Positions 3,052 to 58,116 of a stretch of 64,000 nucleotides of DNA are shown in pieces. The DNA lies in assembly GCA_951406725.2 (NCBI GenBank), contig OX597831.1, forward strand, positions 9,424,001 through 9,488,000. The letters are read 5' to 3'. The translations under genes were made by a program, and so were the position numbers. Below the pieces are notes generated by a model that worked only from the letters and a program-made list of their open reading frames with translations, did not search any database and was not told the DNA's origin. This DNA is from Octopus vulgaris (Eukaryota). Positions within the stretch are counted from its first letter, which is position 1; each line of letters begins with the position of its first letter.

Positions 3052-3652
3052 AAGGCGGCGAGCTGGCAGAAACGTTAGCACGTCGGACGAAATGCACACC
3101 GGTATTTAGTCTGCCGCTACGTTCTGAGTTCAAATTCCGCCGAGGTCGACTTTGCCTTTCATCCTTTCAGGGTCGATTAAATAAGTACCAGTTACGCACT
3201 GGAGTCGATATAATCGACTTAATCCATTTGTCTGTCCTTGTTTGTCTCCTCTGTGTTTAGCCCCTTGTGGGTAGTAAAGAAATAGGTGTTTCGCCTGCTG
3301 TTACGTTCTGAGTTCAAATTCCGCCGAGGTCGACTTTGCATTTCATCCTTTCAGGGTCGATTAAATAAGTACCAGTTACGCACTGGAGTCGATATAATCG
3401 ACTTAATCCATTTGTCTGTCCTTGTTTGTCCCCTCTGTGTTTAGCCCCTTGTGGGTAGTAAAGAAATAGGTGTTTCGCCTGCTGTTACGTTCTGAGTTCA
3501 AATTCCGCCGAGGTCGACTTTGCATTTCATCCTTTCAGGGTCGATAAATTAAGTACCAGGTACGCACTGAGGTCGATGTAATCGACTTAATCCGTTTGTC
3601 TGTCCCTATTTGTCCTCTCTATTTTTAGCCCCTTGTTTCCAATAAAGAAATA
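3052..3652 (+). mobile_element. tRNA-derived SINE family A, one head plus three tandem 184-bp bodies
   Basis: A-box-like AGCTGGCAGAAACGTTAGC, B box GAGTTCAAATTCC, conserved CCTTTCATCCTTTC-GGGTCGAT-AA core; units start at 3101, 3285 and 3469; TSD ATATACAT(A/C)GTTTTAT at 3036-3051 and 3653-3668. Confidence 0.9.
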
Positions 3653-23600: not shown

Positions 23601-23645
<45 letters not shown>

Positions 23646-24394
23646 GGATTAATCTTCTCTCTTCGCTCTTTTACGCCATTTGGGCTCAACTCTCGCCTAT
23701 TTTCATCTATTCTCCCCCCAAACTCCTACTTCTCTTCAGTGCTTCATATTTTCACCCCTACTCTGTTTCCCTCTTCTTCCCTTCTTTCCCTTCTTCCCCC
23801 TTCTTCCCTCTTCTCCCTCTTCTTCTCTCTTCTTCCCTCTTCCCCTTCTCTCTTTCTCTCTGCTCCTTCACTCCCCTTCTCTCCCCCTCCCTCCCCCTCG
23901 TAACCCTCCTCTCCCTCCCCCTCCTCTCCGCCCATCCCCTTCTCCTCCTCTCCCGCATCCCCCCTCCCCCAAACCACCTTACCCCAACCCCCAGCGGAAC
24001 CCACACCCCACCTGGGCTTTCGCCACTCTCGCCTCCCCCACCTCCCCACAACATTACTCCACACTACACTAGGCCATACAACATTACACATCACATCACA
24101 ACAAACCACCCACAGCACACCGCCCACACACCCATCCTCACATCTTTACACCCACACATACATACACATCACATCACAACACACCACCCACACACCCAGT
24201 CCCACACCTCCACACCCACACATGCATACACAGACACGTCCACACCACCAGCCCTCTTTCACACGCACATACATTCTCTCTTATACACACACGCACCTTT
24301 GTGTTGGGGGCACCTTCATTTTGGAAGTCACTTGACCCTGTTATCTCGCCTGACCACTGTCCGAAGTCAGGACGCCATGATAGACCGTTAGCTC

Positions 24395-24582
24395 CTACAC
24401 GCATTTTTTTCTCTCCTTGGTTCTCTCCTTGTTTCTTTCTGCGTATCTTTCTGACGAAGAGCGTAGGCTCGAAACGTAAAAGACTCGTTCTATTTCTATT
24501 CCTGAGCGCCATACTAATACATTTGCTTGTTTGTACTCCACCTGCCATCGACTTTTGTTTATTTTCGTAAACCTTCCCGTTA
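24395..24582 (+). mobile_element. Penelope-like pLTR fragment ending in (TA)n
   Basis: Contains the HHR at 24446-24483; collinear with the reverse complement of 26181-26395. Confidence 0.75.
24446..24483 (+). ncRNA. Minimal type I hammerhead ribozyme, canonical core
   Basis: TCTTT-CTGACGA-A-GAGC(GTAG)GCTC-GAAA-CG-TA^AAAGA; 5-bp stem I, 4-bp stem II, ACGT stem III, GUA triplet (cut after 24478). Confidence 0.85.
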
Positions 24583-26180: not shown

Positions 26181-26395
26181 GGGAGAGTTTACGAAAAAAA
26201 CAAAAGACGAAGACAGGTGGTGTACAAAACAAACAGATGTATTAGTATAACGCTCAGGAATAGGAAAAGTCTTTTACGTTTCGAGCCTACGCTCATCTAC
26301 AGAAAGGGACACAGAAAAAAACAAGGAGAGAAACAAGGAGAGATAAAAAGGAGATAAGAAAAGGAGAGCAAAAAGGAGAGACAAAAATGTGTCTA
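26181..26395 (-). mobile_element. Penelope-like pLTR fragment with A6U-variant hammerhead (26271-26306)
   Basis: Minus strand reads CTTT-CTGTAGA-T-GAGC(GTAG)GCTC-GAAA-CG-TA^AAAG; its 3' end abuts (TA)n. Confidence 0.72.
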
Positions 26396-27899: not shown

Positions 27900-29193
27900 T
27901 TTAGCTTAATAAAAAACTGTAAGAAACTATGGACAGAAAATGAAGAAAGCTACTAACAATGCATGGAACCCATCATCCACGTGCAGACCCTGGCCGTCTA
28001 TATAGGAAAAGAGCAAATAGAGGAAGGGGACTGATAGGTGTGGAAGACTGCGTGCGTATCGTAGCTTAATGAGATACCTAGCCCAAAGTAAGGAAACCTT
28101 GCTAGTGACAGTTAAGAACGAGGGTGTATTGAGAGCAGGTAAAAAAGGGGAAAAAAGGAAGAAGTCGATGAAGAAGAATTACGCCAGAAGGAACTACATA
28201 ATCAATTTCATGAAGGCACAACAGAAGTTGCTGGAAAAATAGGTGGGATTGGCTGATGAAAGGAAGCCTAAAAAAAGAGACCGAAAGCACTATACTGGCA
28301 GCGTAGGACCGAGATTTGGCCATGAACTGGAAGGTCAACCATAGGAATGAGCAAGAGTCTCCGCTTCGTCACATCTGCAATAGAGTGGATGAAACCATTG
28401 CCCATATCACGAACGAATGCCCCAGACTTGCCCGAAACCACTAAAAGGTGTGGCGATACGACCAGGTAGCGAAAGTGCTCCATTGGAAACTGTGTGAAAA
28501 GTGGGGGCTAGAGAGAGGCAAGGCATGGTATGAGCAGAAACCGCTGAGAGTGGCGGAGTCGGCGACTAGCAAAATCCTCTGGGATTTCCCAATCCAAACT
28601 CATCAGGTGTTAGAGCATAACAGACGGGTCCTAGTGGTGGTGGACAAGGTGCGCAACACATGCATGTCCCTTTGACCCAAAAATAGTCAAGAAGGAAGAC
28701 GAAAAGATAGCTAGATACAACCTCCTTATATATGAAATAACCCGGATATGGAAAATGAAAAAGGTGAAGACAGTGCCAGTTATTGTTGGGTCGTTAGGAA
28801 CAGTATTAGAAGGCATCAAGGGGAATAAAAAAAGAAAGAATATATTTCTTTATTGCCCACAAGGGGCTAAACATAGAGGGGACAAACAAGGACAGACAAA
28901 GGGATTAAGTCGATTAGATCGACCCCAGTGCGACACTGGTACTTTATTTATCGACCCCGAAAGGATGAAAGGCAAAGTCGACCTCGGCGGAATTTGAACT
29001 CAGAACGTAACGACAGACGAAATACCACTAAGCATTTCGCCCGGCGCGCTAACGTTTCTGCCAGCTCGCCGTTTCTGGCACGGCCAGAATAATCAGGAAA
29101 GTATTAGATAGCTGAAAATAAGGGATAGCATGGTACCGTAGGCTGCATGTAGTAAGTCACCAGGAGCTCGAACAAAATCTGTAATATAGAGAA
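27900..29193 (+). pseudogene. 5'-truncated, decayed R4/Dong-clade non-LTR retrotransposon (thumb, zinc knuckle, RLE, 3' UTR) interrupted by a SINE
   Basis: MHGTHHPRADPGRLYRKRANRGRGLIGVEDCV (27959-), ICNRVDETIAHITNECP knuckle remnant, WRYDQVAKVLHWKLCEK..ILWDFPIQT, TVPVIVGSLG, and after the SINE GTARIIRKVLDS* followed by (AAT/GAT)n. Confidence 0.85.
28841..29072 (-). mobile_element. SINE family A monomer nested in the R4/Dong remnant
   Basis: Matches 24595-24827. Confidence 0.92.
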
Positions 29194-36265: not shown

Positions 36266-36746
36266 GACATGACAGAGTTGGCCAATATCTCCACTGGCTA
36301 ATAAGTCGGCATTACAATATCAAAACTGCCGACAAGTGGTATAATCACCACCCTGAGGCTGTAACTGAAGGAGAAAATGTAACCATTCTGTGGGACTTTC
36401 CAGTACATACAGACCGACCATCAAGGCCAATAAACCAGATATTGTTGTGAAAGACCAAAACAATAAAGTTTGCTTATTGATCGACATGAGCATCCCCTGT
36501 GATCATAATATCTCAGCGAAAGAGTTTGACAAGCTCAGAAAATATAAAGACCTATTCATTGAAATTGAGAAAATGTGGCATCTCAAGGCGGTTACAATAC
36601 CAGTGATCGTAGGAGCACTAGGAATGATCAAGAAGGGAACCGAAAATTATATGAGAATGATCCCTGGCTTACCATCCCTGCAAGAAGTGCAAAAGATTGT
36701 CTTAACTGGTACATCACACGTATTGAGAAGAGCATTGTCGATGTGA
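36265..36746 (+). pseudogene. Restriction-like endonuclease C-terminus of a 5'-truncated R4/Dong retrotransposon (one frameshift near 36418; 3' UTR to ~36935)
   Basis: RHDRVGQYLHW..ILWDFPVHTDR / TIKANKPDIVVKD..LLIDMSIP..KEFDKLRKY..IPVIVGALG..GTSHVLRRALSM*: RHD, PD-D and K..KY motifs; begins and ends in (AAT)n. Confidence 0.92.
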
Positions 36747-46305: not shown

Positions 46306-46984
46306 GGAGATGCGAACTGGCAGAAACGTTAGCACGCCGGGCGAAATGCTTAGCGGTATTTCGTCTGCGTTGAGCTGACGGTGAGCTGGCGGTGAGCTGG
46401 CAGAAACGTTAGCACGTCGGCCGAAATGCTTAGTGGTATTTCATCTGCGTTACGTTGTGAGTTCAAATTCCGCCGAGGTCGACTTTGCCTTTCATCCTTT
46501 CGGGGTCGATAAATTAAGTACCAGTTATGCACTGGGGTCGATGTAATCGACTTAATACCTATGTCTGTCCTTGTTTGTCCCCTCTGTGTTTAGCCCCTTG
46601 TGGGTAATAAAGAAATAGGTATTTCGTCTGCGTTACGTTGTGAGTTCAAATTCCGCCGAGGTCGACTTTGCCTTTCATCCTTTCGGGGTCGATAAATTAA
46701 GTACCAGTTATGCACTGGGGTCGATGTAATCGACTTAATACCTATGTCTGTCCTTGTTTGTCCCCTCTGTGTTTAGCCCCTTGTGGGTAATAAAGAAATA
46801 GGTATTTCGTCTGCGTTACGTTGTGAGTTCAAATTCCGCCAAGGTCGACTTTGCCTTTCATCCTTTCGGGGGTCGATAAATTAAGTACCAGTTACGCACT
46901 GGGGTCGATGTAATCGACTTAATACCTATGTCTGTCCTTGTTTGTCCCCTCTGTGTTTAGCCACTTGTGGGTAATAAAGAAATA
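46306..46984 (+). mobile_element. SINE family A with stuttered head and three tandem 183-184-bp bodies
   Basis: Units start at 46435, 46618 and 46801; TSD GGTATTATC(A/G)TCTCAGTT at 46288-46305 and 46985-47002. Confidence 0.92.
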
Positions 46985-47415
46985 GGTATTATCGTCTCAG
47001 TTCGAATAATTGAGTAAAATACAAATCATCAGCCGAGGTAAGATTTGAACTCAGGAACACTGCAATGAATGGCGTGGAGAAATTGGAGTAAAAGGCTAAA
47101 TGCTGAAGTTGTTGATGTTTAGTTTAAAATCTGCCTTTATCGAATTATCGAAAATACCTGCGATCAAATGATCAGTTGTAAATGGTTTTGCTTTTTGTTC
47201 TCACGCGACCTTCTCCAACCATACGTCATCTCTATGAATCTAGATATGTGCAACTTTCGTTAATGGATGGACAAAGAGCTGAAAATCATCATCTAATTAT
47301 TACAAGGGATCTCGCCTCTTCCAAGAACAAGCAACAATCAATACAACATTTAACAAGAAATCCAATCCATCATCTCACCTTATCCACATCTTCATAATGA
47401 ATAGAACTAAATTAG

Positions 47416-51537: not shown

Positions 51538-51961
51538 CTATTTCTTTACTATCCAAAAGGGCCTAAACACAGAGGGGACAAACAAGGACAGACAAACGGA
51601 TTAAATCGATTACATCGACCCCAGTGCGTAACTGCTACTTAATTTATCGACCCCGAAAGGATAAAAGGCAAAGTCGAACTCGGCGGAATTTGAACTCAGA
51701 ACGTAGCGTCAGACAAAATACCTATTTCTATTTCTTTATTACCCACAAGGGGCTAAACACAGAGGGGACAAACAAGGACAGACATAGGTATTAAGTCGAT
51801 TGCACCGACCCCAGTGCGTAACTAGTACTTATTTAATCGACCCCGAAAGGATGAAAGGCAAAGTCGAACTCGGCGGAATTTGATCTCAGAACGTAACGTC
51901 AGCCGAAATACGGCGACGCATTTCGCCCGGCGTGCTAACGTTTCTGCCAGCTCGCCACCTT
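51538..51961 (-). mobile_element. SINE family A dimer (head plus two bodies)
   Basis: Junction AAATA|CCTATTTC near 51720; flanking duplication GAAGTTAGAAATAC at 51524-51537 and 51969-51982. Confidence 0.92.
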
Positions 51962-55647: not shown

Positions 55648-56181
55648 GCGCGCTAATAGACACACGCACGCACAAACATAAATACATACATATGGCTGGA
55701 TAACTATGGACAACTACCATGAGCCTTCGAGCTCGGATAACAATGGACAACTGCTTCGAAGCCTCCACCTTCTAAATCCAGATTTCAAATCGCCATTTAT
55801 ATCAATATAATTGTTGAACTTGATTTTGTGTCTAAAATGCCCAACTGACATTATCATTAGGAGTAAGTTTGAATTTTCATTAAAAGAAATCAAACAACTG
55901 ACTCGCACATTAAAAATACAATCTTTAGGTCGAACAGTAAACGCATGCAGTGCCTCTCCAGTTCAAAACGTGAGATGGCTTTTATTATCTACATTCCCAA
56001 CTATGAAGCTTTTCATCTTTGTTTTGAAACCAGCTGCTTCCCCAGTGGAAAAATATAAATAATTGAAAGGAGATGATATCCTATATACGTACACACATAC
56101 TTACATGCGTACGTACATACACACACGTATATAAACATACGGGAAGCACACGCTCACAGACAAATTTGCATGCCTACGTTC

Positions 56182-56234
<53 letters not shown>

Positions 56235-56243
56235 TATATTTAC

Positions 56244-56307
<64 letters not shown>

Positions 56308-56596
56308 GAAATATTAAAATTACTAAGTCTCTCTAAAAGAGAACAGCGGCAGCGTTCCCGGAAAATAATAGTTATCGCCATACTAATATGGCATTCTTTT
56401 TCTTATTTTTATAAGAATGCCATATTAGTATGGCGATAACTATTATTTTCCGGGAACGCTGCCGCTGTTCTCTTTTAGAGAGACTTAGTATTTTAATATT
56501 TCTATTATTGAAAACAAGTGGATGTATTCCACCGAAACTAGGTAAATAAAACCATCGAACAGAGATTGTCGGAAGCGACACCTACTGACTGGCTAC

Positions 56597-56638
56597 GATG
56601 CATTGAAAAGGGGCAATACCCCGAAACGCGTCTGTAGC
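56597..56638 (+). ncRNA. Type I hammerhead ribozyme, U3-A8 core (unit 1)
   Basis: GATGCA-TTGAAAA-GGGG(CAATA)CCCC-GAAA-CGCG-TC^TGTAGC; cut after 56632; one A-G mismatch in stem I. Confidence 0.82.
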
Positions 56639-56958
56639 TGCCGGTCAAGTAGTGTGGAGCGACTGATCTCCCTTGTTCGAAGGTTATATGGATACAGTTT
56701 GTGTATCAAATAGCTAACTTAAGGCGATGGCCTCATGGAGCTAATAAGCGGACAGCTTTTTTCTTATTTTTATAAGAATGCCATATTAGTATGGCGATAA
56801 CTATTATTTTCCGGGAACGCTGCCGCTGTTCTCTTTTAGAGAGACTTAGTAATTTTAATATTTCTATTATTGAAAACAAGTGGATGTATTCCACCGAAAC
56901 TAGGTAAATAAAACCATCGAACAGAGATTGTCGGAAGCGACACCTACTGACTGGCTAC

Positions 56959-57000
56959 GATGCATTGAAAAGGGGCAATACCCCGAAACGCGTCTGTAGC
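56959..57000 (+). ncRNA. Type I hammerhead ribozyme, U3-A8 core (unit 2)
   Basis: Identical to unit 1; cut after 56994. Confidence 0.82.
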
Positions 57001-57320
57001 TGCCGGTCAAGTAGTGTGGAGCGACTGACCTCCCTTGTTCGAAGGTTATATGGATACAGTTTGTGTATCAAATAGCTAACTTAAGGCGATGGCCTCATGG
57101 AGCTAATAAGCGGACAGCTTTTTTCTTATTTTTATAAGAATGCCATATTAGTATGGCGATAACTATTATTTTCCGGGAACGCTGCCGCTGTTCTCTTTTA
57201 GAGAGACTTAGTAATTTTAATATTTCTATTATTGAAAACAAGTGGATGTATTCCACCGAAGCTAGGTAAATAAAACCTTTGAACAGAGATTGTCGGAAGC
57301 GACACCTACTGACTGGCTAC

Positions 57321-57362
57321 GCTGCATTGAAAAGGGGCAATACCCCGAAACGCGTCTGTAGC
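57321..57362 (+). ncRNA. Type I hammerhead ribozyme, U3-A8 core (unit 3, fully paired stem I)
   Basis: GCTGCA-TTGAAAA-GGGG(CAATA)CCCC-GAAA-CGCG-TC^TGTAGC; cut after 57356. Confidence 0.87.
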
Positions 57363-58116
57363 TGCCGGTCAAGTAGTGTGGAGCGACTGACCTCCCTTGT
57401 TCGAAGGTTATATGGATACAGTTTGTGTATCAAATAGCTAACTTAAGGCGATGGCCTCATGGAGCTAATAAGCGGACAGCTTTTTTCTTATTTTTATAAG
57501 AATGCCATATTAGTATGGCGATAACTATTATTTTATATATATATATATATTTGTATGTATGTATATATATGTACGTATGTATGCAAATGTGTCTGTGAGC
57601 GTGTGTGTTTACTGTATATTATTGAAACATAAAACTTAACTAAATAGAAAATTCCTCACCATTGAAGACTTTTGATATTTGAAATGATATTATTTAAAGC
57701 TATAAAAAGGTGCAATGAGAGAGGCGAGATGAAGAAATGATAAATTGTTTGGCAGGTAGATAAAGGTGCATGTTCTCAAACACAGAAGAAATTGAAAGAT
57801 AAAGCATTAAAAACATAAAAAAAAATTTATAAAACTATGAATATATCTTTCGTGAATATTTGTGAGGGGTTTTGGAGCAATTCGGATGCGTGGACACGTT
57901 GGAGGTAGTTTTTCAATGTCATCTCTAACTATTTCAGAAAAAAGCACCTTCAAAATTGAGGTGATATCAAACAACGTCATTTCAAATAAATATATATATT
58001 CTTCAATATTCTACATCTTCTTCTTAATAATATCACTATTATTATTATCATTATTATTATTATTATTAATATTATTATTATTATTATCATTATTATTATT
58101 ATCATTATAATTATTA

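Follow-up and report, generated by a model that had tools for sequence, protein, structure and literature searches.

A Tandem 362-bp Hammerhead Repeat of Octopus vulgaris as a Likely Retrozyme with a Penelope-Type Insertion Footprint

Introduction

What moves a noncoding 362-bp repeat that carries a hammerhead in each of its units and lies within (TA)n, and which form of its RNA would the moving enzyme copy? These questions are raised by a locus of the window analyzed here, a stretch of 64,000 nt from Octopus vulgaris (assembly GCA_951406725.2, contig OX597831.1, positions 9,424,001 to 9,488,000 of the forward strand; C18 among the contigs of the 2.8-Gb genome searched here). An earlier note on this DNA had proposed a retrozyme-like system of circular RNAs copied back by Penelope enzymes, and knew of no description of the family. 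Cervera and de la Peña (2020, PMC7229834) treat retrozymes, the circular RNAs known for them in coral, mussel, and axolotl, and a proposed mobilization by Penelope-like elements (PLEs), and an origin of vertebrate retrozymes from pLTRs has been argued by Li, Clavereau, and Pollet (2026, bioRxiv 10.64898/2026.07.22.740005). In our literature search, neither a retrozyme from an octopus nor a LINE aimed at a retrozyme turned up (Repbase, subscription papers, and the supplements of the 2026 preprint may include them); the class and its Penelope link are in print. The family stands out for an insertion footprint that is unusually easy to read and for a LINE of its own. Overall, we lean toward a young noncoding retrozyme whose RNA would be cut to 362-nt monomers, probably circularized, and copied into (TA)n by a PLE of the Hydra clade.

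Structure of the Window Insertion

Tandem Repeats Finder delimits an array with a period of 362, 3.1 copies, and 99% matches at 56397–57534 (+ strand), in agreement with the tandem hammerhead array first described there. These bounds hold for the direct arm of 3.1 tandem 362-bp units and not for the insertion, which really starts at 56302 with an inverted arm that had been overlooked: positions 56302–56398 (− strand) are a 97-nt copy, at 100% identity, of unit positions u16–u112, and overlap the array by 2 nt (units are numbered from u1 at window position 56759, which places the predicted hammerhead cut at u236). The full insertion, 56302–57534, is flanked by (TA)n on either side, at 56185–56301 on the left (a tandem repeat reaching 56304 in the repeat call) and, as read from the letters, at 57535–57549 on the right. 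The outer end of its inverted arm lies at fixed site B (u112) and that of its direct arm at fixed site A (u49–52), two sites defined below.

The unit is noncoding, as had been claimed, with a GC content under 50%, no LTR-type frame, and no long reading frame in the six frames of a unit dimer. One base is missing from array unit 1 near 56489; because this position is upstream of the first predicted cut, the spacing of the cuts is unchanged, and GAAACGCGTC ends at 56632, 56994, and 57356, exactly 362 nt apart as foreseen. A private base at u192 is common to window units 1, 2, and 3, and unit 3 bears, at 57261–57280, three alleles from another subfamily, a mixture that requires a template switch or conversion and shows that a single template does not account for every array. 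The flanks at 56147–56218 and 57534–57605 form an inverted repeat of 72 nt (86%), so the insertion hit a TA run at the center of an older fold-back. No match to PLE or LINE proteins was found in the window by tblastn, and no host gene was identified in it.

A Type I Hammerhead in Every Unit

One type I hammerhead with the palindromic stem III ACGCGU is seen in each of the three units, on the + strand, as the earlier note had it: hammerhead 1 at 56579–56656 (extended stem I, core 56603–56609, predicted cut after 56632), hammerhead 2 at 56941–57018 (predicted cut after 56994), and hammerhead 3 at 57303–57380 (all 6 bp of stem I present, predicted cut after 57356). The core reads UUGAAAA, with U3–A8 replacing C3–G8, a described variant of PLE hammerheads (PMC4209133). 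Stem II is a 4-bp GGGG/CCCC with the loop CAAUA, followed by GAAA; the 6-bp stem I continues through an internal loop into a long distal stem; and the duplex of self-complementary ACGCGU is worth −7.5 kcal/mol. C>A changes at 56598 and 56960, private to the window locus among the loci compared, create an A·G mismatch in stem I of hammerheads 1 and 2.

The motif is not a product of chance, since its 30-nt core has 892 exact copies in the genome and the reversed control 0. In a covariation set of 16 sequences, hand-picked from 78 distinct variants and with three old copies among them, 97.3% of cells were paired and five pairs had changed on both sides (0–1 in slid controls). As these sequences are related, figures from shuffling cannot be taken as probabilities. 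N7 is the sole core position that varies between subfamilies. Rfam returned no hammerhead match in the window array at the gathering threshold or at E≤10, a miss that we attribute to the variant U3–A8 core. The miRNA-family matches that it did return were produced by the inverted arm and were rejected. A second hammerhead-like motif per unit (UUGAAAA...GAAACUAGGUA, which would cut after 56544) was judged degenerate: stem II is preceded by two surplus bases, the closing pairs do not match, and stem I consists of AU pairs throughout.

Cut to cut, the predicted monomer RNAs of 362 nt would span 56633–56994 and 56995–57356 (+ strand). The latter is strongly self-paired (−129 kcal/mol, z = −7.8 vs. 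100 shuffles), with a circular fold also predicted. The RNA of the unit is likely cut by its own hammerheads into 362-nt monomers.

Fixed Outer Ends and Two-Armed Insertions

The unit belongs to a young family of more than 1,100 copies, dispersed over many contigs and inserted in the (TA)n microsatellite. Our sample of 95 distinct insertions, left from 112 retrieved loci after removal of 17 overlapping duplicates, was drawn from the best matches to the window unit and the majority of the first 100 matches to the core on C1–C2, a way of sampling because of which long arms are over-represented. Sixty-eight of the 95 are two-armed, with 3′ ends facing outward. Their outer ends fall into two classes, A (u41–54) and B (u100–114), whose fixed points lie 63 nt apart, and 58 of the 60 classable two-armed insertions pair A with B, when random pairing would give about half. 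The other two are one B+B and one A+A, the latter a young copy nested with an old copy; one odd end occurs in 8 of the 68 two-armed insertions, and 24 of 27 single-arm insertions end at A or B. Genome-wide, exact joints of end B with (TA)n number 1,185 (control 0), and a single inverted B+B pair was met among the first 100 such joints listed. Both outer ends close in TATTAT-like sequence, able to pair with the target. The embedding in (TA)n noticed at the window array is a property of the family, with 1,185 identical joints; the circularly permuted array ends that had been expected find no support, the outer ends being fixed at two sites family-wide and not placed at arbitrary mid-unit points.

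Inner ends are variable, apart from a short palindrome at u272–290 (57030–57048, + strand), a hot spot of arm joining that takes 32 of 156 inner ends with 9 expected (6 complex loci left out of the count). Overlaps of 2–7 nt mark 39 of 63 arm junctions. Arms exceed one unit in 91 of 156 cases and reach 3,574 nt, and long arrays of about 10, 8, and 5.5 units exist in the genome. Older subfamilies (L067, L105, L147, and L356) have 75–86% identity and retain both the ends and the hammerhead, which indicates several waves of the family. A composite at G000:C1:162.63 Mb (L093/L115) consists of an array of ~8 units, all of one haplotype, that directly adjoins end A of a copy with a different haplotype and the LINE inside it.

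PLE insertions are described as having a truncated arm in inverted orientation and a tail on just one side (PMC8557442), and an anole PLE as starting reverse transcription, on either strand, from two internal sites that define the tail (PMC11167929). The A+B pairing with an inverted arm amounts to this "tail plus inversion" footprint of Penelope elements.

Penelope-Like Elements as Candidate Movers

That Penelope enzymes move the repeat, as the earlier note supposed, is now the best-supported reading, on the A+B ends, on the same end rule in two PLE families of this genome, and on chimeras; we regard movement of the unit family by a PLE as very likely. Hydra family W has intact 851-aa ORFs with DKT, CxCX5C, and CxxC/CxH motifs and 2,551 exact tail copies in the genome, and Hydra family V has 1,618 matches at ≤1 mismatch. 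In W, 24 of 30 loci are two-armed, 23 of them short+long, and in V, 17 of 30 loci are short+long and none long+long, with both samples anchored on the long end, so that short+short pairs are invisible in them. Tails measure 63 nt in the unit, about 85 in W, and about 166 in V. Within chimeric insertions, one arm of L018 starts on hammerhead element W and then switches to the unit; L356/L379 unite the unit and family V, the second arm of the V chimera starting at the unit's site B; and L046, L109, and L103 join the unit to Neptune-like PLEs.

The likeliest source of the enzyme is a Hydra-clade PLE, which we consider the probable mover, even if homology does not name the partner: the unit has no nucleotide homology at E≤0.5 to 50 Hydra-type loci, and a homology search found no parent PLE. 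A candidate partner, P0001 (L337, G000:C17:56.99 Mb), carries the Hydra-clade motifs, namely DKT, a CxCX5C linker, CxxC and CxH, and a C-terminal nuclease, with an RWK-like motif that reads KWK (RWK or RWL in families V and L318) and a (TA)n target; the assignment to the clade follows from motifs compared by eye, and the Hydra-type ORFs have no match in Pfam. At least three Hydra-type PLE families were seen (L337, L295, and L301; L318–L320; L334). Several open frames of W have 838–852 codons and those of the L318 family 904–908, and the copies of V that were read seem to be broken.

Neptune-like PLE families are also present (L116:5093-7261, L152, L256–L275), some with minimal U3–A8 hammerheads. 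Family X of this kind was rejected as sole partner, the two-arm pattern being absent and an inverted partner arm occurring in ~1 of 30 loci. Neptune-like family Z, in which the 3′ region is long and (CA)-rich, is a possible partner whose true 3′ end lies beyond the loci read.

Circle or Linear Multimer as Template

A 362-nt circle is the template that we somewhat favor, from the allele content of the arms and the places where copying stops. At 22 shared polymorphic sites in 91 loci, chosen by setting aside 4 that were old or broken, allele discordance is 43/3143 (1.4%) within arms and 40/1790 between the arms of one locus, figures in which the within-locus disagreement is partly an alignment artifact at u192, and it rises to 22% between loci. 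Of the 198 times that copying arrives at the cut site, 10 end in a stop ≤10 nt past it, with a median background of 1.5% per 10 nt; at the putative transcription start, it stops twice in 165 passes. Shared alleles and few stops imply a template that is mostly continuous across the cut and has one allele per site. A circular template would fit this simply, and uncut linear multimers fit too.

The strongest rival accordingly holds that a few long homogeneous masters yield uncut linear multimers, copied by PLE twin priming, with a hammerhead that is slow or dispensable and circles that are a by-product or absent. Arrays of 5–10 units do exist in the genome, and the anole PLE, as described, inserts in vitro without cleavage, its main substrate being uncut RNA (PMC11167929); in Xenopus, eight of nine retrozyme dimers are reported without cleavage in vitro (bioRxiv 10.64898/2026.07.22.740005). 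Moreover, each of the two arms of L179 contains 3′ sequence of the LINE, the outcome expected of a read-through template, and the slight excess of stops just past the cut (10/156 vs. 4.3 expected, P = 0.012) suggests that some templates may be linear. However, arms over 599 nt occur in 13 of 17 haplotype classes, so that a separate long master would be needed for at least 13 of them; a source junction or flank is rarely carried, more than two segments being seen in 4 of 95 loci; stops do not pile up at the putative start; and compensatory changes maintain the pairing of the hammerhead. We thus hold linear templates to be unlikely, if a serious minority option, and retain the circle. None of the 91 loci provides an informative source–daughter pair proving a one-unit bottleneck. 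Contigs of four sequencing runs, three presumed to be RNA and one unlabeled but none of them on record as RNA, cover the unit and a 362-nt back-joint, a joint that tandem DNA yields as well. In run X10, a low-depth contig over 56912–57120 shows a run of A>G changes, such as A-to-I editing of a fold-back RNA would give.

The Unit and Coding Penelope Elements

Units found only as pLTRs attached to coding Penelope elements were the case that the earlier note had set against its own reading. The corresponding alternative is that the unit is a pLTR of an unsampled coding element and that the arrays are its truncated ends. The ends are indeed of PLE type, Xenopus retrozymes are argued to derive from pLTRs (bioRxiv 10.64898/2026.07.22.740005), and the insertions read are 95 of more than 1,100. 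Yet none of these 95 runs into an ORF of its own, an ORF with reverse transcriptase and GIY-YIG nuclease being found neither in the unit nor continuing from it; head-to-tail arms attain up to 10 units; the junctions between unit and PLE are scattered and lead to four different PLE families; and the 50 Hydra-type loci compared show no homology to the unit. We consider it very unlikely that the unit is such a pLTR and keep to a noncoding ribozyme repeat copied by a PLE.

A LINE Dedicated to the Unit

A 5.35-kb LINE, first met inside the unit in two loci, was traced to 16 (L113, L114, and L171–L185; e.g., G000:C2:73.04-73.07 Mb). In a genome search with a 29-nt pattern, its 3′ ends join u175/176 in 21 of 21 cases, and the unit is the only landing site found for it. 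Full-length copies occupy 12 of the 16 loci, all with the same 5′ joint at u192; three loci hold 5′-truncated copies, one with the duplication retained, and one locus is a head-to-tail stack of five with target sequence between copies. The LINE is bordered by 16–18-bp duplications of the unit, and its target, u175–192, lies 44–61 nt upstream of the predicted hammerhead cut (56933–56950, + strand, also 56571–56588 and 57295–57312), unoccupied in the window copy. Its copies differ at 4–56 of 3,300 bases and lie in different unit subfamilies, which fits independent targeted insertions. The element is young, with an intact ORF2, and Pfam recognizes APE, RT, zf-RVT, and zinc knuckle domains, in a zinc-binding ORF2 and a zinc-knuckle ORF1. 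From this layout, we provisionally place it in the Tx1 clade.

As all of its 3′ ends adjoin the unit, this young and intact LINE could itself be thought to move the repeat in a SINE-like relation, a reading to which we give very little credence: the LINE lies inside the unit between its duplications and at only 16 loci, and the repeat ends without poly(A), fixed at A/B, in (TA)n and with inverted arms. An ordinary satellite amplified as DNA, with a fossil hammerhead, would explain near-identical tandem units and an array of ~10 of them, and is just as implausible, being contradicted by the end data (fixed outer and variable inner ends, inverted arms, a target bias, and many contigs).

The LINE joint coincides with a putative start of transcription. 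We built a matrix of the proximal sequence element (PSE) on six classes of U1/U2 promoter, represented by 38 of 40 loci (2 adjoining a LINE end were dropped). The best PSE-like match among 724 unit positions is u105–132, with a score that is equaled by 130 of 1,000 resampled units and is not significant by itself; with a PSE 54–58 nt upstream, it implies a start at u175–179, the LINE joint. The match lies in the block most conserved against old copies, u91–150 (56849–56908, + strand, also about 56488–56546 and 57211–57270), together with site B and the degenerate hammerhead-like motif, and this block could just as well be a structure that RT binds near site B. When DNA upstream of U1/U2 was aligned pairwise with the unit, the result was mostly no better than for shuffles. 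Just upstream of U2 genes (L191 and L198), a LINE-like 3′ end (CATAATAAAGA...) adjoins the first U2 base, in place of the promoter, an arrangement that suggests a relative with the start of U2 as its target.

Proposed Mechanism and Relation to Known Systems

The favored retrozyme reading can be laid out in steps of unequal firmness. A promoter within each unit, possibly of snRNA type, might initiate RNA near u175–179, a tentative first step that we would put slightly below even. The hammerheads would then very likely cleave at u236, aided by ACGCGU dimer pairing, and ligation of the monomers is a reasonable expectation. With the greatest confidence among these steps, we propose that a PLE protein, probably a dimer, would nick both (TA)n strands, one cDNA being primed at A and one at B on the same RNA; PLE copying enzymes would supply both reverse transcriptase and GIY-YIG nuclease. 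The two cDNAs would probably extend to variable lengths, round the circle if beyond one unit, before 2–7 nt of microhomology join direct and inverted arms. Later, a LINE of Tx1-type layout takes u175–192 of the unit for its target. It is speculative, and in our view doubtful, that all tiers stack as one, that is, a viroid-sized hammerhead circle with an snRNA-type promoter, a dimeric Hydra-clade PLE copying it from two sites, one per strand, and a LINE at the transcription start; were this true, the LINE may borrow the promoter and flanking ribozymes of the repeat for its own RNA.

In kind, the family agrees with animal non-LTR retrozymes, as had been suggested, by its tandem noncoding units, hammerheads in consecutive units, and dispersed young copies. 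Those described by Cervera and de la Peña (2020, PMC7229834) are likewise noncoding tandems of 150–450 bp (350–390 bp in mussel), with a GC content below 50%, a single type I hammerhead per unit, a strongly self-paired monomer, and a proposed mobilization by PLEs. The octopus unit differs from them in the U3–A8 core of an otherwise canonical hammerhead, in the absence of target duplication, in two fixed internal ends with inverted arms in (TA)n, and in that circle and cleavage are here predicted only; no cephalopod family figures in the parts of that paper and of the 2026 preprint (bioRxiv 10.64898/2026.07.22.740005) drawn on here. The copying of animal retrozymes has been proposed in print and not demonstrated, and this family offers two base-precise priming sites, a simple target, and intact candidate enzymes in the same genome, together with over a thousand young insertions for which circular and linear templates predict differently.

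Hydra-clade PLEs (Craig et al. 2021, PMC8557442, with Hydra-1_Obim in its supplement) have in common with the unit the (TA)n target, the inverted truncated arm, the one-sided tail, and the hammerhead. The short+long end rule is shared with the two Hydra-clade families of the octopus genome; unlike these PLEs, the unit lacks an ORF, homology between it and Hydra loci was not detected, and its tail of 63 nt exceeds the 30–40 bp described in that paper. The Poseidon element PAc of the anole (Frangieh et al. 2024, PMC11167929) resembles it in AT-rich two-strand cleavage, two internal RT starts, and a predicted dimer. In the in vitro account of PAc, however, start site use is equal on both strands, whereas the octopus arms almost always use different sites, and the octopus template is noncoding and multimeric. 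This near-strict rule of one site per arm is a constraint on the inversion mechanism of a PLE dimer.

As reviewed in PMC4494074, Tx1-clade LINEs (Tx1L in Tx1D, Tx1-Mar in Mariner-N4, Keno in U2) have an ORF2 of APE, RT, and zinc finger and occupy one exact site in a multicopy repeat, in head-to-tail stacks, as the octopus LINE does, so that LINEs of this layout are known to target transposons and snRNA genes. The octopus LINE differs in that its target is a hammerhead retrozyme, and a LINE at a ribozyme repeat widens the known target range of site-specific LINEs. Newt satellite 2 (via PMC2220036) is, like the unit, a tandem hammerhead repeat, of ~330 bp, with a weak palindromic stem III; it has an snRNA-type promoter, of which the octopus unit shows only a weak match.

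Other Repeats of the Window

Elsewhere in the window, tandem arrays of a SINE-like unit of 183–190 bp lie at 3111–3636, 46435–46997, and 51538–51911. The frames at 28635–28994 and 36369–36743 resemble what we take to be the C-terminal nuclease end of RLE-type LINEs. Old fragments at 23642–24578 and 26188–26349 are kin of the 3′ end of Neptune-like family X.
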